DNA from: Botryllus schlosseri
Lineage: Eukaryota
Assembly: GCA_051294905.1 (NCBI GenBank)
Contig: CM119371.1
Location: 29,328,001 to 29,392,000 of the forward strand
Direction: 5' to 3'
DNA length: 64,000 nt
A program made the translations under genes and the position numbers. The notes beneath the pieces were generated by a model, which saw only the letters and a program-made list of their open reading frames with translations, ran no database searches and was not told the origin of the DNA. Shown here piece after piece: positions 6,401 to 64,000 of the stretch (within the stretch, counting starts at the first letter, position 1; every line of letters begins with the position of its first letter).

Positions 6401-7759
6401 AGAGTTTTGGAATCAAATGATTTCGACTGAATTATCTCAATCTGCCAATGCAGAAACCGAAGGTGCTTACATTTTCGGAAACTTATACAAGAAGACTCTT
6501 ATAAGCCCCCTACTTCGAAATGAGGTTCTACACCAAGAACGGACATTGAATTTCGAATATGGCTATATAGAGGATACTATGTGTCTGTAATATAGATTCA
6601 CAATGCAATGCCAAAAACAAATGAGTCGGCATTGTCTGCCAAAACACAATTAATCGGTCCGCTCTTTCAACATTTTTGTTGCCCGTGCAGTCACTCTAAT
6701 CACATAAAAATAGAAATATAATCCTACGGCCTTGTCTATATATAGAAATCTAAATATTTTATGCATAATATGACGGAGGCTGACTTCAATCATTGGATAT
6801 CTCCACGTCAACTAAATAATACTTCCATCGTGGGTTAGTAGATCGCATTCGAGCACGATTGCTGTTTCTCAATTCCGCGCTGGTAACAAGAATATGAACG
6901 ACTTACAACTTCTTAATCTTCTTCATCAATCAATCCAATAACTACGCAATGTCTACGAAATTCGCATGAAACACACACAACTTTCTGCTCCCAGAGCAAA
7001 ATTCGGCAAGCCCACAACACACGTTGAGAAATCGATCTTCGTGGCAAAATAAACTATACCAGTTTGATTTCGCGTTCCGCGAAACCTGATTACCATCGAT
7101 TTACAAGAGCTTGGCGCACTGGGATGCCGAGTCGGCAAAGTGTCGACTTTATGTAGGTTAACAAATATCGATTGTTTTAAATCAGAATTATCTTAATGCA
7201 GTCGTCTACAAAGAAAATATAGAAAACGGGGCAGTAGTCACGCGTGCGGATAACCGCGAAATCTGGCCGCGTGCAGGACTTAATGGTATTGCATCCGTGT
7301 TCGTCATGCAAATCTTCGAGCGGATGATGAGAGGAGTTGCAAAAGTTGGTAATTTCGGAATGACACACATTTTGATATTGGTCGCTCTTTCGATCAAAGT
7401 ATTATGACATCGTCGACTCTCCATACGAAGCGAAATATTAAGATTGGAAGCGATTGGGTCGCCTTTCAAATACATGGACTTCTACGCGCTATCCCATTTG
7501 TGGAGTATTTCATACACATGTCTGCCAAGTGAATGTATTAACTTATGTGGTTTGTAAGTACGATCTTCGGTTTGGTTGTAACCCCCATGACAGTGTGTAC
7601 ATGTGTTCACATGTAGTAAAATTATACCATCTCAATGCTCCATTATGATTCGTTTTGTCTAGGTAAGTAGCGACCTGTCTTGCGTATTAATTTTCATGCA
7701 GGCTAAATATAGTGGTGAATCTGTCACGTGGTCGCTGTGCTCTAAAATGCAGAATTAAG

Positions 7760-7841
7760 TGGCAGCGGTGGGATTTGAACCCACGCCATTGTAATGACTG
7801 GTGCCTTAAACCAGCGCCTCAGACCGCTCGGCCACGCTACC
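7760..7841 (-). tRNA. tRNA-Leu(AAG), copy 1 (4 differences from copy 2)
   Basis: GGTAGCGTGGCCGAGCGGTCTGAGGCGCTGGTTTAAGGCACCAGTCATTACAATGGCGTGGGTTCAAATCCCACCGCTGCCA; 82 nt, long variable arm, anticodon loop TT-AAG-GC, T4 tract downstream. Confidence 0.88.
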
Positions 7842-8732
7842 ACGCGACGACACGCGACGACATGTGATTTATTACGAATTCTTGATCAATAATTTTAGTG
7901 AATCAATAATCGTCAGATTACATTTTGTCAACGCCGAACGGGCTTTCTACAAACATGTTTGAGAACGTCAATTTCGAAAATTTGTTACCGTCCAGGAATT
8001 CAAACCAGGTCTCCTTATATGCTCAATCTATATCAATCGTCCATTTAAATTTACAGTAGCCTACGCCGTTCCTTGCTGTGGTGCTGCTGTTGAGAATCCA
8101 CTAGACGAGAATAAATGTACCCATTGCCAAACCTTTTTGCTATTCAAGACCGCATTACCCTCACTTCTATAGGTTACATCCGCATATGACAGCTGACAGC
8201 CGTAAAGGACCAACTGAAAGCTAAATATCCGCGTTAAATTTGCTTCGCATCAAATACAACCCTTGTGGTTCGTGGCTAAGGGATATTTATTCGCAGAGGG
8301 GTAAATGAAATGCTAAATTGTGCATGCAATTTACAAAGTAATATAATGTAAATAGCTGCGGTAACACTGCTTTAAAACTTCAATGTTAAAAGCTCCCACC
8401 CAGGACTCACAAACCCTACGGGTAACCGGATCACGATGTGACTTATCGACTTCTCCTCCTTCATACACGGGCCATATTCATTTTTATAGCTTCTCCTTTC
8501 TTCAAATATATCCCTGTCTGCCACAAACTTTGAAATAGGGATTGAAAAGGCACCTCGCGTTGCTACAAAATCGGATGAGAATATGTGGAGATATCTTCAT
8601 ATATAACATTGCACATGATATGTCAATACTACATAATTTCTTGGTTGCTCGTACAAAAAATGATATGCAACAAATGTACTCGTGAATTCGTCGTGAGGTT
8701 GCTTTGAAAAAATTAAAAAATTCACATTGAAC

Positions 8733-8814
8733 TGGCAGCGGTGGGATTCGAACCCACGCCATCGAAATGACTGGTGCCTTAAACCAGCGCCTTAGACCGC
8801 TCGGCCACGCTACC
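8733..8814 (-). tRNA. tRNA-Leu(AAG), copy 2
   Basis: Canonical eukaryotic Leu-AAG cloverleaf with A and B boxes (GTTCGAATC); oligo-T Pol III terminator at about 8707-8720 on the minus strand. Confidence 0.96.
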
Positions 8815-9695
8815 ACAGAGGCTGTCAGAACTTGCAAGTTATTCAGAATTCTTGATCACTCAAGTCCAAAACCGAGTGACGGAGATATGGCTATATACGA
8901 AACTGATAGGAAATTGTAGTTTGGAAATCGGTCCCTTCCAGGAGCTCAAACCCGGTCTTCCGATACTCTATGAATCAATCTTCTAATCGAAAGTTACATT
9001 CTGGCATTCCTTGCTTTGCTGGGGTGATGCAAGTGGGAATACACAAGACTAGAGTGGAGCAAATGTGTCCATTGCCGAAGCGTTTTGCTATGCCGGTCAG
9101 GATTATGTTTACTTCTGAAGGTTCCAGCCTCATGCCTGCGGACAGCCGTGAACAGATTTGCACAAACCACTAGATTTTCAAAAAGCGAAAAGGATCGACA
9201 TGTGAGTTATTCCAAACTCTTGATATTAAAAACTTGGAAAAAATTTCAAAACTGAGAAGTTTGTAACTTCCCGTGACCAATACCCGGTCTCCTTGGTCTT
9301 ATGAGGTGCTCCGCTAACCATATTCCCTAGAGACGCGTGACCTGCGTTCCACCGAGAAAAACCGTGCGTCTCACGAAGCAGTACGAATTGTGAATGGTGT
9401 GCGACCCGCCAAATGGATGACTATAATTCAGCTTGCAGTCTGATTCTTTCGAGATTAGCTCAAATGCGGGTGAAAAATCTCCAAAGGTGATACACACGAC
9501 AACAGAACCCAGTTGAGAATTAAATAGCAGTGATATAGCTTAGGTGCATATGTGCAGATACCTTCCTATACGTCCCACGTCCACTTACGTGTGGGAATCA
9601 TTTGGATAAAAATTTTGTGTTTAATTTATACCATAGTGCAAGTTTCAGGTTAGCCCTGCAGGGTTCCGTGTACCACGGGTGTATTGTATATTCAC

Positions 9696-41495: not shown

Positions 41496-41892
41496 TTGGA
41501 AACCATTCGAGGGGGTTCCAGCTATTAATTTATATTTTCGGAATCAGTATGAAAATATCTTTCTGTTTAGTTTAATTTTGCACTCTAGTCGCGAGTTATG
41601 GGTGGAAATATTTCAATTCAGAATTACATCGAATGAACCTGAAGTCCCAACTGGAAGCACCACTACCAAGGAGTATCCGAAGCAGGCTGTGAAGAGTAGA
41701 AACGACTCGCGTTCACATTTAGTAAATGGTTAGGAGGAAAGATTAATGCCCGTATTTGATGATGCCACCATTCATGTAATTTTACGTTAAGAATCCACGG
41801 ATAGTAGTGATGACTGCGCACCGCCTGCTCGAGTAAGAAAACGGAGACGGGGAGTAAGAAAACGGAGAAGGGTTGCAAAAACTATCGAAAAA

Positions 41893-42048
41893 ATGTCGGA
41901 GACTTCCAGTGACGAGGAGAAACCAGACTTTGACAAGCTGTTCCTGCTGAGCTTACATGACTCTCTCAAGGCACTGCCAGAACCCCAAAAATCGAGATTC
42001 AAAATGGATGCGGTTAAGTTGATGCTTGATCATCATGCTGCTGACTGA
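41893..42048 (+). pseudogene. BESS-motif fragment, probably from the MADF/BESS accessory gene of a Harbinger element
   Basis: MSETSSDEEKPDFDKLFLLSLHDSLKALPEPQKSRFKMDAVKLMLDHHAAD* fits the BESS pattern D..FLLSL...LK.LP...K...K; the upstream frame is disrupted. Confidence 0.65.
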
Positions 42049-47472: not shown

Positions 47473-49281
47473 TCACCAGACAAAAGGCGCGCGTTCCCGC
47501 AAAAGTTTAAGCCCTTGAGACTGCCACTCTTTGTTGGTGACCCAGCACTCGTGGGCACTTTCCAAACAGGACAGCACGGACCCGCCTTTCCACGCCACCA
47601 CGGACGGGTCTTGATCTTTCGGCCGGACCACGACTTCGATTTGAGACGCGAGGTATTCTCTTGCCGGAGATAACGGAACGTGGTCCTTGATTTTTTGATG
47701 CATAAAATGGTCAACTCCGTCAAAATGAGCAAGACCGCCACCTACTACAAGAATACACGAATACATCCGTCTTTTCAATTCGTCCTCGTAAGATAGAGGG
47801 GTGTTTTCAATACTCCACACGATCGCTTGATGCAACGGCATCAAACCGCTAGGTGCTAGAACATCAGCTTCTGAAGTCTTTACAGTGCCGGAAGTAGTCT
47901 CTTCTTCTATCTCTTCACTGTTCTCGTAATCCATTCTTTCCACGTTTTGCTCGGAGAAAAAATTCGTCTGCTGCTGCGATTGGTAATCCTTCATCTTACG
48001 AAACGACCGACCATCATAGTGTTTGTTACGCGTTTGGAAAAGGTAATGCTCGTCTAAAGGATCTTCTGAATCACCTGGATTGCGTAGAGCTAAATGCACT
48101 TGAGACTTGGAAGGTTTTAAGCCCAGCACTTTGGGATAGAACAAACTCAGAGGGGCTTGGGACGTCTCGTCACCCAAAGTGATGGGATACAAGATTGAAG
48201 TTTGACCCGGACGCCGTATATGAAACTCTTGCTTCTCTGGGGTTTTACTATCTGGTTTAATGTGGCAGTACGTTTCTTTCAATTCTTCCATAAGCAAAGC
48301 ATCCATTCTATCATCGTGATCGAACTTGTGATACGGTAACGCGTTGCGTTTTAGCAGCTTTGCGAAAACGCGTGTAATATCCTTACCACCGATGTCTAAC
48401 CTTATACTCGTGCTTTTATGAGATATACCGTCCTCTATGCAGCTGATAGCTGTTTTTTCATGCCCAACATCTACGACGCATGCGGTCGCAATTCCACAGC
48501 CGTAAGTGGAGCAGACAGATTCTTGATGCACCAATACCGACGAAAAATTCAGCTCGTTAAATAGCATGTGCACCATTTCCTTTACGTGAGAATGATGGTA
48601 CAAGTCGGGTATCAAGAGAACGCAACGGAAATTCGACAGGTCTTTGAACGGTATAAGCAAAAACGTTTCTATTGCGCTTACCCATAATGTTGCCAGACTT
48701 GTGATTACAGACGATAATGACCCGTAAGGTCCTTTGTGAATATTCAACTGTCCTTTTACAATAGGCCAGTGGAGGTCGTAGCAATCATTTTCATCAATGT
48801 ATAAAGCATCATCACCTATCAAATACGGCTGATGCTTGCTTGTATCTGTCCATGTCCAGCCGCATCCTTCCGAGAGAACCTCGGGCTTTGATTTCTTGTT
48901 GCATTTGGCGAGGTATTCCCATCGACACACAGGTCGTCTAAAATACGAGACTAGGACGTCGTCAATTTCGTTGAGACCGCCAAAATTTATATTCCTTTGG
49001 TCATCTTCGTATTCGCATGAATCTCTCGACAGAAGAGATTGTCTGACCGCTTCTTGTTGACCTGGTTTTTTATGACGCCACGCGATCACGTGAGGTACTA
49101 ATGTCGGCTGAGGATCGGAGGCTCGACCTAAACGGAGGTGCGATGATCCGGGTTGCAATACGATAGTAGACTTGGCTTGACCTGTGGTACTTTCGATATC
49201 AAACGTGTCGCCTACGCTGTCTTCGTTTTGAACAGGACTACTTGAGAAGGACCTCGATGCAGACGACGCCTCCAACGCCAT
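47473..49281 (-). CDS. ACTR8: Actin-related protein 8 (INO80 complex subunit), intronless, 602 aa
   Basis: IVLQPGSSHLRLGRASDPQPTLVPHVIAWR, VHQESVCSTYGCGIATACVVDVGHEKTAISCIEDG, KRRMYSCILVVGGG and the C-terminal LLRERAPFVW are typical of Arp8. The first in-frame ATG is at 49281; the ORF track starts earlier at a TTG. Confidence 0.96.
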   Translation of the reverse strand: MALEASSASRSFSSSPVQNEDSVGDTFDIESTTGQAKSTIVLQPGSSHLRLGRASDPQPTLVPHVIAWRHKKPGQQEAVRQSLLSRDSCEYEDDQRNINFGGLNEIDDVLVSYFRRPVCRWEYLAKCNKKSKPEVLSEGCGWTWTDTSKHQPYLIGDDALYIDENDCYDLHWPIVKGQLNIHKGPYGSLSSVITSLATLWVSAIETFLLIPFKDLSNFRCVLLIPDLYHHSHVKEMVHMLFNELNFSSVLVHQESVCSTYGCGIATACVVDVGHEKTAISCIEDGISHKSTSIRLDIGGKDITRVFAKLLKRNALPYHKFDHDDRMDALLMEELKETYCHIKPDSKTPEKQEFHIRRPGQTSILYPITLGDETSQAPLSLFYPKVLGLKPSKSQVHLALRNPGDSEDPLDEHYLFQTRNKHYDGRSFRKMKDYQSQQQTNFFSEQNVERMDYENSEEIEEETTSGTVKTSEADVLAPSGLMPLHQAIVWSIENTPLSYEDELKRRMYSCILVVGGGLAHFDGVDHFMHQKIKDHVPLSPAREYLASQIEVVVRPKDQDPSVVAWKGGSVLSCLESAHECWVTNKEWQSQGLKLLRERAPFVW

Positions 49282-49810
49282 TTTCGCAGCAATGAAATAA
49301 AATCCCCGCGTTGAAAAGGGTGAAGTCCCTAAACTAAACAAGATTAGTGAAAAAGAACCAGCGGTGCGTATGATTCAGTCTCCCATATCGAGATCTTGTA
49401 CAATGTACATCTCCTCGGACAGTCTGTTATATACGAAGTGACGAGAAAATTTACCATAAATCTGAGCTTAAAAGTAGCTGAGCGAATCATAAGCATTGGC
49501 TTAAGCTGCCTTAGCTATGAAGCCGGGCGTGTGAACGTCTCTCTCTCTCCTTGTCCGATGTGGATCCCCACTAAACACTACCAAGATTGTAGGAACGGTA
49601 ATAACGCACGCCGTTTAATTTAACAAGCATATCATCATGCTACCTTCACCTTTATAACGAAATAAAAGTAAATCAAAGAGAGTTGTGTTTCGTGAATATA
49701 TTCAAACCGCAAGATGCCGTACGTCGACTCCAACGAGAATGCTATTCAGATATGCTTCACTAAGCATAAGCATTATTGCCGACTTTCGTTTTTCGCTGTG
49801 GCGTCGATGT
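49282..49810. promoter_or_regulatory. Probable bidirectional promoter region between ACTR8 and GNPDA
   Basis: Divergent gene arrangement with CpGs retained; candidate 5'-UTR donor GAT|GTATGT at about 49809 could pair with the acceptor tctttacag at 51148. Confidence 0.45.
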
Positions 49811-51186
49811 ATGTAATATGTATATTGTATATGCTGTTCAGCACTTCAGATATCTGCTGAACTGTTTCGTTTTAGTACGTTAATTTACCCATAGTACAGT
49901 CTAGTCGTAAGCATGAGCATCTAGTGGTACCCGTATTGTAAAACATACGGTAACTAACTCTGACTCACTGTTTGGAATCGGTGTCCTGTGCTCACACTAT
50001 ATTTTATTTTTTATTCAATTATTTTAACTTGGAAAATCATCGCTGCTCACCTGATATTTTGTATATTATTGCCTTGAAATACTGGTATTGTGCGGTACAG
50101 TGATCTCACTGCTCTGATGTCCAGTAGGATATGTGCAATTCTGTTGCATGTATTATTGCTGAGACAGCTCAGTCCTGTATAGAATCGGTGTCCTGTGCAT
50201 GTGCTCACACTATATTTTTTATTAATTTTTAATATATTACTTCAACTTGAAGAATCTTCGCTGCACACCCAGGCAAAACGTAACGAGATTCCAGTAGGGA
50301 GACTGACTAAGCCATGTTGAAAGACGTAATTCATATCAAGGCTGAATAATAAGTACTAACCAAGTTGTGAAGTTTCAAAGCAAACGTTTCTGGTCAAGTC
50401 AATCCTGGCTAACCTAACCCATCACTCTCATTTGTATAAGTGCCAATATCAACCAGTAATTATCCTGTGGACAAGAAGATTTTCATGATCATATCATCGG
50501 CAGATTTGAATTACCGTACTATGTAGAAAATTTTCAGTTTTTTCGAAATTGGATTATACAATTGAATAGTATATTCATATTGAAATGAACCTGCATATTT
50601 TTGGCTGACACTCGTCAGGGGTAATCTTCAGCAACTATAGTAGAGAATTGGAAAGAACATTGTATATCAACAAAACAATCGTATATCACAAAATAGGAAA
50701 TTGGATCAGGGTATTAAACGGCAGCACAAGTCTTTCCAAATTATATTTGAGTTAGAATTTTTAAATTCATACAAATGTGGAAATTAAATTGAATTGCGAA
50801 TAGGAAAGGGTTACAACAAGAATCAAGTTCAGTCCATATGAAGTCAGAGTGCATTTTCATTTGCAATGTCGGGCTCGTTTTACAAGTCACTGTTATATGC
50901 TGTCTGTATCTGTAGTGTTTTTAGGTGAACCACACGTTATATTAAAATTAAAGGATAGAAACTTTTCTCTGATTAGACCAGAATTAGATTACGGTACTGG
51001 CTTTTCACGCTAATTAGTGCAATTAGCCAACTAGAATCTACTTGTCCAAGTTTGATCATTGAGTCAACACCGATCAAGGACTGTTCTATAACACTAATGT
51101 GCCCTTTTCTACCTCACCTGGAATATTCTTCTCTCTCAGTCTTTACAGTTGAAATAGCTCTATATTTTTGAAGTATTACCGACATC

Positions 51187-51996
51187 ATGCGTTTGGTCAT
51201 TCTCGACGATTACGACAAAACCAGCGAATGGGCCGCCAAGTACGTGCGCAACAGAATCCTACAATTCAAGCCTGGACCGGAAAAATACTTCACTCTCGGA
51301 CTACCGACAGGCAGCACGCCTATGGGGATGTACAAAAAGCTCGTGGAATTCCACAAGAGAGGAGAGCTGTCTTTCAAATACGTGAAGACGTTCAACATGG
51401 ATGAATACGTCAAGATACCTCGCGATCACCCGGAGAGCTATCACTCGTTTATGTGGGATAACTTTTTCAAGCATATCGACATCGATCCCGCAAACGCTCA
51501 TATCTTAGATGGAAATGCTTCTGATTTAATAGCTGAATGCGATGCATTTGAGGATAAGATTAAACAAGCTGGGGGCGTCGAATTGTTTTTGGGTGGTATA
51601 GGTCCAGATGGACACATTGCTTTCAACGAACCAGGATCTAGTCTCGTGTCTAGGACAAGAGTGAAGACACTGGCTAAAGAAACAATCATTGCAAACGCTA
51701 GATTTTTCGACGGCGACTTATCCAAAGTACCGACGCAAGCTTTGACGGTAGGTGTGGGCACTGTAATGGATGCGAAAGAAGTAATGATTCTTATAACTGG
51801 AGCTCACAAAGCGTACGCTCTGCATAAGGCTATAGAGGGCGGTGTCAACCATATGTGGACAGTGTCTGCTTTTCAGCAGCATCCGAAAACGATATTCGTG
51901 TGTGATGAAGACGCCACCATGGAGTTGAAGGTGAAGACGGTGAAGTACTTCAAAGGACTGATGGCGCTTCACAATAAGCTTGTCGAGACTCTGTGA
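51187..51996 (+). CDS. GNPDA: Glucosamine-6-phosphate deaminase/isomerase, intronless CDS, 269 aa
   Basis: Motifs [57 protein letters not shown]1 versus GNPDA2 cannot be distinguished. Confidence 0.98.
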
Positions 51997-59129: not shown

Positions 59130-59530
59130 TAGGTTTTTCTTTTCGATTAAGCCACGGATGTATTTGAAATCCTGATGCTGTCAAGTTGTTAGTTGTGAAA
59201 TATCGGTGGAAATGAGCGCTGGCGTAGCCAAAGGATGCTTTCCCTCCTAAATTTTCATTCTTGCTACCTACCCCTATGGAGTTGGGCACTTGGAGACGCG
59301 GACAGCAGATCTTGACAAAGCTAAACCAATTTCGAATCTTTGTGCGGCCGTGAAATTTAAAAATACCATTATTTTATTATATGCTTTGCAAGTTTTTAGC
59401 AGTGGTGTTCTGGTTTGTTTGCGTAGCATTATAGCACAAAATGTCATCCTGCTTAACATATTGTCTATGCGTTTACAATATATGATGTTGTGACTCATCA
59501 CGGTACCTATCAACATATCTAGTTCTAGAA

Positions 59531-60343
59531 CAGTGGTTCTCAAAGTATGGGTCGCGACCCAAACATGGGTCGCGGAGGGTCAGAAAATGGGTCGCGACAT
59601 AGTGATTCAAATCTGTCAAAATTCAATTTTCTTAGTGGATTATTGCTTCATCATACGCATTTCATTTAGCTTCTTAGTGGATTATTGCATCATAAGTGGT
59701 TTTCTAAGAGTTTCAATGGCAGCGCAGCTACACTAGGCGTAACTACTTAGCCCAGTAGCTGCTAAAAAGACTAAGTTAAGGAATGGAATGCATTTTGATC
59801 GCGAATCTAAGCCTGCGCCAGGCCACTGTTATTCACATGATGCAATCGCACAAGCTCGAGCAGTAATTAGTCTTTACCATCTCCACACACCAAAAATACT
59901 ACACCATCTTGGCAGACAGTAAAAATCATATTGATTTAAAACAAAATTAATCCTGATTGTTTGTATCAAACGGCAACAGACTATAATTCATTTGCGTATC
60001 TTCACTGCGTTGCGTCATGATTCGAGCGCGCTTTGTATCAAGGCTCGCAATCGCCTCGATCCTGGAGACGATTTGCGCATTGCGCTCAGTAAGATAGAGC
60101 CGTGCATTGAAAATATTATGAAAGAGAACTTTCAGTTTCATCAATCACACTGAATGAATGATCTGTCTCTAATAAATTGTTCTCTCATAGTACTGTGTAC
60201 TATAACTGGTTGTCTGTGTCTTATCTGAAAAATTAGCAGAGTGGTAACATAAAAAATACATTTGTTTATGTTTGAGATTTGGGTCGTGAGGTGATCATGA
60301 AACTCAGATTTGGGTCGCGCTCAAAAAAGTTTAAGAACCACTG
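59531..60343. mobile_element. hAT Charlie-like non-autonomous element, 813 bp
   Basis: TIR CAGTGGTTCTCAAA / TTTAAGAACCACTG; perfect TSD TTCTAGAA; GGGTCGCG subterminal motifs. Confidence 0.93.
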
Positions 60344-60844
60344 TTCTAGAACTTTGTGCTTTTGTTGAAAACTGGTACCTTGTTGTAGCATACAGTTTAT
60401 TTTTGTAATTTTCAGAACTGTCTGCATCTTTATTTTAGTAATACCGTTACCTCTCTTATGCGCTACTGTGTGTTCCAGACACTCCACTGTAATTTTTACT
60501 GATAGTTATTGTGCTTGTGCGTTCCTGTTTTGCAATCTGATTAATGGAGATGATCCTACATTAGCGACTTTGTTTAAACTGTTTTTGATTTGCATTTCGA
60601 TTCTTTCCAATACTACTGGGACCAAGAGACATAACGACTGTAAGATTTTGTTATGCTTTGGCCGGAGTCGAATATTTAACAAATTTCAAGATTCTACTTG
60701 ATTGTTGTATTATTTTTGGACGTTTTACCATCACCGATGGTTTTTATTAGTGACCGTGCTTTGGTGCGTGATTTTATGTGAGCTTATGAGGTAAAATATT
60801 TTTCCAGGTGGCAGTATTGTAATGTGATATCTTAGGGGGTTAAA

Positions 60845-63650
60845 ATGATTGTGAAATGGCGGCTGATGTCTTTCTACTTCATGAGCATCGTCGGAATACT
60901 GATCTACCTCAAGGTAAGTCTTTAATTAAACGGTATTTGAATACATAGGCTTACATGATTTTAAATCCACTTGTTATTAAAGCCCAACTGCTATATATTC
61001 GGGCTTATATCTTTCTAAGTAGAAATATTGGTATCCGCTAACCTCAGTCAATGGTTATTGACCTGTCCGATAATGTAATCTCTCCTGCTGTGTTCCAATT
61101 AAGATGGTTTTCAGTACTGTTGAACTGATTGACGAGGACCATCGGAGATCGGGTTAAAATGCTTTAAACTTGTGTATCCTGCACCAAAATATATGCCTGT
61201 TAGATTGGAAGTACTAGTTTTTTGCTCAACTACGGTTTGATGGAAAATAACGGGTTTTGCTTGACAAATCACTACTAATAATTATAAATTTTGTTTGAAA
61301 TATGTTGTTTTGATATCTGCCGAGAATATTGGCTGCATCGGCGAAATATGTTGTATCAATGATACCTTCATTGACTCAAAATTATAATATCTACCCTAGT
61401 TGTAGGCTAACCTTGTTGCGATGTCGCCATGACATTGTTCTTATGAATTAGTGTTTGTTTTTAGGGATTTTTCCCGGTCAAGATATCTCGTGTAGGTTCA
61501 AGCTCGCTGAGAGACATTCCGCCAGTTCCGTCTGACAAGGACACCATCGCGTTGAGCCGTGTGGATTTCTCGCAAGGAATTTACGACCAGGAGGGACCTT
61601 TGCAACCAGGTAGGCCTGCAGTGGGCGTTGGGCGAGTCTTGCTAAGTAAGAATTTATCAGAGGTGGTCAGTGACTAAGTATTCCTACTTTTTGGAGTACC
61701 TCAGCAGGTTTAGGTGTTTTTTTTTGACTTGGGTGCCCACGCTGGTTACAAACGTCAAAATTTAGCTGGAATTGGATTCTGTTGTTTTGTACTAACTGTT
61801 ATTAAGTCTGCAACCTGGATCTGAACTATATAGCGGGACATGAAAATCCTGTATGAATTTTGCTATTTTAGCTTAGCTTTGAGACAAATACTGTCGAAAT
61901 ACAATCATTTTAACGAGCGGAAGTTATTACGGACGCTTTTCATTTCAGACAAAGCATTATCGCCGCTTCAAACGCCCCTTTACTCCAAATTGGTGATGGT
62001 GGTGGTCAATGCGCTACGTGACGATTTTGTGTTCGGGTCACTCCATCTCTTGGACACACCGTTTATACGCAAGTCACTGTTGAACGGTAACGGCATCGGA
62101 TTTTTCTCAAGAGCTATGTCGCCAGCTGTTACATTACCTAGAATCAAGGTAGATAACTTTCAATGATATAATGTCATAGCTCTGGTGTATAATAACTTTA
62201 TTTTCAAGTAGACCTAACCTAATTGATGGGGTGTTGGTTCACAGTGACAATCATTTTGCGCTTTTGACATTGCATCCACTGCATCAGTGCTCAATTTTAC
62301 TTGAAAAATTAGTAATTTGCCTTTAATTTTTATTTCGGTACATGAAGAAAAAGTTCCACGGAAACATGTCGCTTCTGTAGCATTTAATCCCAAAACTAGC
62401 TTTCTAGCGTAAACGGTTGTCAAGATATGGCAAAATTAGTCAAAATTATGGCAAAATTACCAGTTCCGTGTGATTGCATGGCCACTAGATGGAGCCAGAA
62501 CCTTAAAACATTACAGAAGTATTTTATTTGATATTCAGGACCGTGAATATCAAAAATATTTTCTGAAGTTCAAATTTTTCTATATGTCATTCTGTTGCGT
62601 GTAGCAAACAAAATCACGTCATAATACTGTGGAAAAGTAGCATTACTTCCTTACTCCCCGTTTCGAACTACTAGTGCTGTTTTTTATGTTTTAGAGTCTG
62701 GTTACCGGCAGTGTCACCAGCTATGCGGACGTCATCCTCAGCTTAGACCGGGCCAAGCCACTGAGGGAGGACAACCTCGTGAGCGGCGCGTTCGCCCGGG
62801 GCAAATCGATCGTCTTCTACGGTGACGAGATGTGGACCGACATGTTTCCGGGGAAGTTCAAACGACAGATCCCGGTGTCGTCGTTTTTCCTGCGCGATTT
62901 CATACGGGCGAGTAGACTTTGTGTTTGTGTTGGTGGGTTCGAGGCCAGTGTTGTTCAGGGTGACTCTCCTGTGGTTACTGTTTAAAGTCACTGGGATTCG
63001 CTGTAAGTTATTGAGCCTAGGTCTTAATGTGTTAAGCTACGAGTGTGTGATTTATACGGGGGCTGGGAAAAATCAGGCAACTGATTATCGGGTAACGAAT
63101 GTAATATTGGGCTTCTAATCGAGTCAAGTACTCAGGTATCAATAATTATGACTTCACAACCGTATGAATGATATGTGAAGTTCAAATATCTGCCTTTTAT
63201 GTGACCCCAAAGATTATAATGCCATCTCTACATCACATGAGGAATATTTAAGTAGTATTTATGGGTCATACGTATTTCCATGCACTTCGTGACAATGGTC
63301 TGGAATGATCATGACTTCGCAGATAGGTCATTACCACAAACCACCAGTAGCTTTTTACTACATGCAACAAATCATACAACCGATCGAGTTTTCAAGGCTT
63401 CCTCTATTGATAATACTATCAGAACTAGAGTTATCGTAGATAAATTAACCCTTTGTGACCAGCATCGCATAATCTTAGTACTCGAAATGTACTCGGAGAT
63501 GTGTAAGAATCCGCTTATTCACATTGTATGTATACCGATAGGTGGATGACATTGTGGAAGACGGGATTCGCAAGGAACTGAGCCATCCCGAACACTTTGA
63601 CATCATGATCGCAAACCTGCTGGGCCTGGGACACATCGGGCATGTCGTAG
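60845..63650 (+). CDS. PIGG: GPI ethanolamine phosphate transferase 2-like (PIGG-like), first 5 exons; gene continues past the window
   Basis: Exons 60845-60913, 61465-61609, 61949-62148, 62695-62907 (GC donor), 63542-63650. N-terminal TM followed by KGFFPVK; motifs ALRDDFVFG, VTLPRIKSLVTGS, IVFYGDEMW, SFFLRDF, GHIGH. Active-site residues are altered (see findings). Confidence 0.88.
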
Positions 63651-64000
63651 GTACGGTAATTGCCAAGTTACTGTTATGGTTTCGTTGTTTTAATATAAAC
63701 TGCTTATGATGTGTTAGCAAGACCAGAGGTGGTCAAAGTAGTAAGCTGTACTGAATTACGAGTAGCAGTGGCCATTTCCATCTCCATTTACATGTTAAAA
63801 CTGCTTTAAGCGGAAGTAGTATATGAATGGTCTGGAATGTACTCAAGTAGGTAGTTTTATAAAGTTGATTTTGCCGAGGGGCCGCTTACTTTTAGCACTT
63901 CTTTAGAGGTGGCTACTATTGAAGTGGTAAGATGTGTCTTTGCTAATGCAAAATGACTAAATACGTTACAAATAAGGGGCAATCTTTGAAAATATATTCA

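Follow-up and report, generated by a model that had tools for sequence, protein, structure and literature searches.

The 64,000-nucleotide stretch of Botryllus schlosseri analysed here (the window) ends inside a gene that is likely the ascidian orthologue of PIGG, and in it two aspartates predicted to be zinc ligands are replaced by asparagine and glycine. We favour, at a probability of about 0.55, the reading that this PIGG is dead or nearly dead as an enzyme and has been maintained for a role of its membrane domain other than catalysis; the argument runs through sequence comparison and through mutants of related enzymes. In two full-length relatives, Styela clava PIGG and an unnamed protein (P0094), erosion is confined to the catalytic half.

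Gene structure and transcripts

The gene has five coding exons on the + strand (60845-63650), whose spliced frame is open for 245 codons and extends beyond the window end. Its parts are as follows.

60845..60913, + strand: coding part of exon 1, with the start ATG and an N-terminal membrane segment (MIVKWRL...IYLK) that aligns with the Styela N-terminus
60911>61463, + strand: exon 1-2 joint, GT..AG, one contig of run X1
61465..61609, + strand: exon 2, which encodes the GFFP motif and the luminal stem
61606>61946, + strand: exon 2-3 joint, GT..AG, contigs of runs X1 and X2
61949..62148, + strand: exon 3, with strand 1 of the alkaline-phosphatase fold and the nucleophile helix
62695..62907, + strand: exon 4, spanning the YGDEMW and SSFF region and bearing T165M and E190R
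62908-63541, + strand: intron 4, GC-AG (GC donor), introns 1-3 being GT-AG
63542..63650, + strand: exon 5, with N194I, H214N, D219G and H223 kept; continues past the window

The initial annotation had placed a PIGG-like gene at 61949..63650. The PIGG-like character stands; the start lies upstream, at 60845. Its description of frame and splice sites as intact agrees with the 245-codon open frame and with spliced contigs for three of the four introns.

The window protein comprises the first 245 residues of a PIGG family member, in which alignment finds an N-terminal membrane segment followed by a luminal alkaline-phosphatase/NPP domain. It matches hedgehog PIGG (P0001) at 36% over 232 aa (blastp, E 2e-44), exon 3 by itself reaching 47% (tblastn, E 3e-10), and the named matches that were looked up were all GPI ethanolamine phosphate (EtNP) transferase 2/PIGG. 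Searches of Pfam and PDB with single window exons gave no significant match, and exon 4 as query found no homologue among 41 candidates.

Four of the 24 listed runs were compared over 60700-64000. Two of them, X1 and X2, are presumed to be RNA and hold intronic as well as spliced pieces. Their contigs skip introns 1, 2 and 4; intron 3 is not among the listed joints. The skip of intron 4, 634 bases in an X2 contig, fits GC..AG after a shift by one. Two X2 contigs span 63550-63651 and carry 46 extra letters, which, going by the record coordinates, would be the next exon. Near-identical copies occur among the X1 and X2 contigs together with copies about 5% different, probably alleles or very close species.

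Neither 63630 nor 63614 is among the 8 G>A and 2 A>C places of run X2, and its two exon-5 contigs therefore read neither Asp219 nor His214. At 62008 no change is among the variants listed, a listing that omits 35 rows, though other changes of the same contigs are listed, which suggests that the Asp codon is absent there too. The variants listed in exons 2-4 comprise 16 synonymous and 6 non-synonymous changes (pN/pS 0.12, binomial p 2e-6), and these exons are under purifying selection. Expression, an intact frame and purifying selection, all of which are looked for in a pseudoenzyme, are thus found together in the window exons.

The raw runs X5 and X9 hold almost only repeat reads, with 2 reads on exon 4 (X5). 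In all four runs very high depth with many loose ends marks three intronic places (about 61657-61699, 62389-62439 and 63281-63323) as dispersed repeats.

Predicted active site and tunicate relatives

Residues are numbered as in mammalian PIGG (D74, T113, T115, H214, D219, H223). The positions that bear on the predicted active site are these.

62008-62010, + strand: Asn92 (AAT) where the DALR motif has Asp (D74), a predicted Zn2 ligand, giving VNALR
62122-62133, + strand: PAVT for PTVT, with Ala131 (GCT, 62125) in place of the first Thr (T113)
62131, + strand: ACA, Thr133 (T115), the predicted nucleophile, kept
63614-63643, + strand: NLLGLGHIGH for HYLGLDHIGH
63614, + strand: AAC, H214N
63629-63631, + strand: GGA, D219G, a predicted Zn1 ligand lost
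63641, + strand: CAT, H223, a predicted Zn1 ligand, kept

VNALR with AAT at 62008 and NLLGLGHIGH with GGA read in the window just as first annotated. The change from PTVT to PAVT is likewise real, and it affects the first Thr, the nucleophile being the second.

The ligand roles come from comparison with two-zinc phosphodiesterases. PIGG profiles align their motifs to Xanthomonas NPP, ENPP5/6 and PafA with E-values of 1e-6 to 1e-2, matches that are weak but in register. The register D..R.D, P..T, D..GH, DHG is common to the NPP/PafA enzymes and the PIGG profiles, whereas 2 of 7 ligand positions are non-canonical in the protein described here, and its Styela relative has a membrane-embedded C-terminal half. 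Seven metal ligands are described for NPP3 (PMC6052110). By alignment D74 is predicted to serve Zn2 and D219 to serve Zn1. The SHG His (H277) we take to be a metal ligand as well. Structure searches found no structure of PIGG, PIGO or PIGN, so these roles are assigned by analogy. The second PTVT Thr is identified as the nucleophile because PafA chains 5tj3 and 5too differ at the aligned residue and T79 is reported as the PafA nucleophile (bioRxiv 2020.11.24.383182).

Mutants of these enzymes bear on what the replacements would do. In mouse ENPP1, Ala at each zinc-binding Asp or His except H362 is reported to abolish activity on both substrates, and H362A keeps ATP hydrolysis (PMC9173814). By alignment D200 and D358 would be the ENPP1 equivalents of D74 and D219, and H362 that of H223. 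PafA D38G, probably the D74 equivalent, has activity that is still measurable (bioRxiv 2020.11.24.383182). MCR-1, a bacterial PE-dependent transferase, uses Glu246 at what is taken to be the D74-equivalent site, and one-zinc structures of MCR-1 and EptC exist (PMC7347692).

Canonical PIGG/Gpi7 (Ciona, Clavelina, Phallusia, vertebrates) is like the window protein in its N-terminal membrane segment, GFFP motif, luminal domain and nucleophile Thr; unlike it, the DALR Asp and the DHIGH Asp are present. Exon 3 as a phmmer query against 1.84 billion representatives gave 78 matches, with Asp at the DALR site in 76 and Asn in 2. The substitutions were then followed in 150 aligned rows (the window and 149 proteins of at least 500 aa, isoforms included, from our own homologue queries). 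No row other than the window and four Styela records has D74N or D219G, and T113A, T165M, N194I and H214N are confined to the window. Asn at the D74 site was seen also in a Logan fragment (P0007) that is 71% identical to the window and has PAVT too. In a MetaClust protein of 576 aa (P0036), H269S and H277T appear in one alignment and DHG and SHG are intact in another, probably a duplication or alignment artefact.

The closest named relative is Styela clava XP_039252036.2 (55% over 251 aa, E 3e-90), which carries both D74N and D219G and whose closeness points to a stolidobranch ascidian as the most likely source of the window. Its full length is known, and its automatic name is 'GPI ethanolamine phosphate transferase 2, catalytic subunit-like'. 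It keeps T113, T165, E190, N194 and H214, whereas the window has changed all five, and it retains T115, H223, the full membrane half and the DHG and SHG motifs, whose counterparts in the window gene fall past the window end. Five of its 7 predicted ligands are kept (T115, H223, D268, H269, H277). A profile search with the ascidian sequences scored 8000 candidates and gave 707 matches, of which the best 120 were listed; new among these were Phallusia, additional Ciona records, a canonical, tunicate-like protein (P0095), and P0094. The PIGGs of Ciona, Clavelina and Phallusia are canonical. P0094, of 968 aa and 56% identical to Styela PIGG, keeps 6 of 7 predicted ligands: both aspartates (D74, D219), DHG and SHG are intact, and H223L, E190T and an altered SFFV segment are its changes. 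A scan of JGI metagenomes with exon 3 gave 595 pattern matches, 0 of them confirmed; the ESM Atlas had no match of at least 0.9 and was uninformative.

Even with three ligand columns removed, the window groups with Styela and P0094 in one clade (100/100) within a tunicate PIGG clade (100/99). The trees leave out PIGO and PIGN, and the full-length tree is a quick version. On full length the window pairs with Styela (SH-aLRT 90). Without the three trait columns Styela pairs with P0094 (87/81) and a window-Styela pair is not rejected (p-AU 0.17); a single origin of D74N and D219G therefore rests on parsimony. The stem branch of the clade is long within tunicate PIGG, and the window branch measures 0.95 vs 0.27 for Styela.

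Where the relatives changed was counted over columns whose conservation among 119 non-tunicates is at least 97%, 62 of them in positions 64-223 and 46 in the membrane half (126 rows; isoforms, duplicates and proteins below 850 aa dropped). The catalytic-half columns were changed in 26/62 cases in the window, 15/62 in Styela and 22/62 in P0094, vs 3-5/62 in Clavelina, Phallusia, Ciona and P0095. Membrane-half changes amounted to 3/46 in each of Styela and P0094 and to 2-8/46 in the four other tunicates. Fisher tests of catalytic vs membrane half, which are post hoc and treat non-independent columns against a vertebrate-heavy reference set, gave p 0.018 for Styela, 0.0004 for P0094 and 0.23-1.0 for the four controls. 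N136S, S139A and W208F, in the conserved pocket region, are common to the window, Styela and P0094.

Pfam places PF01663 above cut-off in Styela PIGG, and PF19316, a C-terminal multi-pass membrane domain, in both Styela and P0094; by homology to Styela the window protein would carry the membrane half too. A fold of Styela PIGG predicted from 65 rows had pLDDT 86.5 and matches alkaline-phosphatase-superfamily domains. It is no test of activity, because a deep canonical alignment would yield such a fold anyway. A fold from 6 rows was poor (pLDDT 45.9) and was discarded, and an overlay alignment of three exons was dropped, its score being too low.

Proposed retained function and alternative readings

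Canonical PIGG takes EtNP from PE and attaches it to mannose 2 in the GPI precursor (PMC7125958, PMC8222316, PMC11466713). With one predicted ligand of each zinc site gone, this transfer would be lost or nearly lost, as the ENPP1 mutants suggest by analogy. The loss of a different predicted ligand in P0094 (H223L) suggests that catalysis is no longer constrained across the clade. The membrane domain would be retained, possibly to bind PIGF or the GPI precursor lipid. The same D74N and D219G in Styela speak against both an error and recent decay. In human cells PIGG is reported to be dispensable for GPI-protein display (PMC8222316), and from the normal display in PIGG-knockout cells it follows that a lineage could drop PIGG catalysis.

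PIGF stabilises PIGG and also PIGO (PMC8222316, PMC7125958). The most plausible retained role would be a putative one in binding PIGF and influencing PIGO, which takes up about half of the probability given to the main reading. PIGG and PIGO reportedly compete for PIGF, according to Shishioh and colleagues in 2005.

Several observations weigh against a dead enzyme. Five of 7 predicted ligands are kept in Styela and 6 of 7 in P0094, and in a long-dead site more losses might be expected. The residual activities of ENPP1 H362A and PafA D38G point the same way. The purifying selection measured in exons 2-4 suggests that the luminal catalytic half still matters.

Those observations leave a sizeable but lesser chance that the enzyme has been rewired, with one metal (D268, H269, T115, and Asn or water for D74) and weak activity or activity on a new substrate. 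The nucleophile Thr is present in the window, Styela and P0094, DHG and SHG are present in the latter two, and the shared pocket-region changes would fit a new specificity. Loss of a single ligand can shift specificity, as in ENPP1 H362A (PMC9173814), and one-zinc structures are available for MCR-1 and EptC (PMC7347692). Among the top fold matches to the Styela model was YejM/PbgA, a membrane protein of bacteria that carries an alkaline-phosphatase-fold domain. Its regulatory role is a precedent for such a domain in regulation. YejM/PbgA differs in its topology and is only about 15% identical; no activity had been reported for it before the description of a Mg-dependent phosphatase activity (PMC7576196). 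On the other side, ENPP1 requires the equivalents of both Asp residues (PMC9173814), and the lesions of the branches differ, D74N with D219G in one and H223L with loss of the SFFV segment in the other. The window adds T113A, T165M, E190R, N194I and H214N, and T113, T165, N194 and H214 are unchanged in all other rows covering them. Differing lesions and these extra changes look like released constraint rather than one new site.

It is unlikely that the gene is a dead duplicate and that an intact PIGG lies elsewhere in the genome. The clade would then be a paralogue family, possibly with a Styela type and a P0094 type, and its long stem branch, of a kind often seen in duplicates, would fit, P0094 being a possible paralogue. 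One Styela clava PIGG was found, and no second, in the best 120 of 707 matches (8000 candidates scored), the other tunicate PIGGs all standing in the top 8; 0 of the 75 parsed exon-3 matches (of 78) is Asp-bearing and close to the clade; and the 64-kb window holds no second PIGG copy. The suggestion that the gene is the sister of an active paralogue accordingly found no support. Far less probable still is pseudogene decay, a mistake in the assembly, or the restoration of Asp codons by RNA editing. The long window branch, the near lack of exon reads in X5 and X9, and an AAT codon that is in principle editable to an Asp codon would suit it; against these stand the open frame, the spliced contigs, the pN/pS of 0.12, Styela with its same two changes, and the X2 contigs without Asp219 or His214, probably joined by an unaltered 62008. 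A-to-I editing is in any case unable to make an Asp codon from GGA.

For the PIGG kept without its catalysis, the earlier wording 'conserved but catalytically dead or altered' still describes the protein well: splicing, purifying selection and the sharing of both losses with Styela speak for conservation, and mutagenesis in the NPP family for the loss of activity. We consider it possible, at less than even odds, that the sea-squirt branch of Styela and its kin made its only PIGG a pseudoenzyme and so exposed a non-catalytic function, such as PIGF buffering or GPI-lipid sensing. A lineage that dropped the active site and kept the protein would separate the catalytic from the non-catalytic roles of PIGG. 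If there is no second copy, the branch's GPI anchors are predicted to be without EtNP on mannose 2. Such a non-catalytic PIGG function may exist in humans as well. In humans, PIGG loss leads to a neurological disorder and to the Emm-negative blood type. The word 'catalytic' in the database label of the Styela protein is doubtful.

No description of this altered-ligand PIGG was found in the mostly open-access literature searched; the papers on PIGG that were consulted describe it solely as a catalytic subunit. A PIGO/PIGG double-knockout assay exists (bioRxiv 2020.11.26.399477), for which Ciona (active-type) and Styela (altered-type) PIGG are a ready pair.

Neighbouring features

About 490 bases upstream of the PIGG start codon lies an 833-base MITE-like element (59521-60353) with 24-base terminal inverted repeats that are 96% complementary. 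Two other genes of the window are single open frames and apparently intronless. The first, at 47473-49374 on the - strand, encodes an actin-related protein (PF00022, E 3e-33), which we take to be ARP8-like. The second, at 51172-51996 on the + strand, encodes a glucosamine-6-phosphate isomerase (PF01182). At 41791-42048 on the + strand a short frame encodes a BESS motif (PF02944, E 1e-7), and the - strand carries a pair of tRNA-Leu(AAG) genes at 7759-7841 and 8732-8815, separated by about 1 kb.
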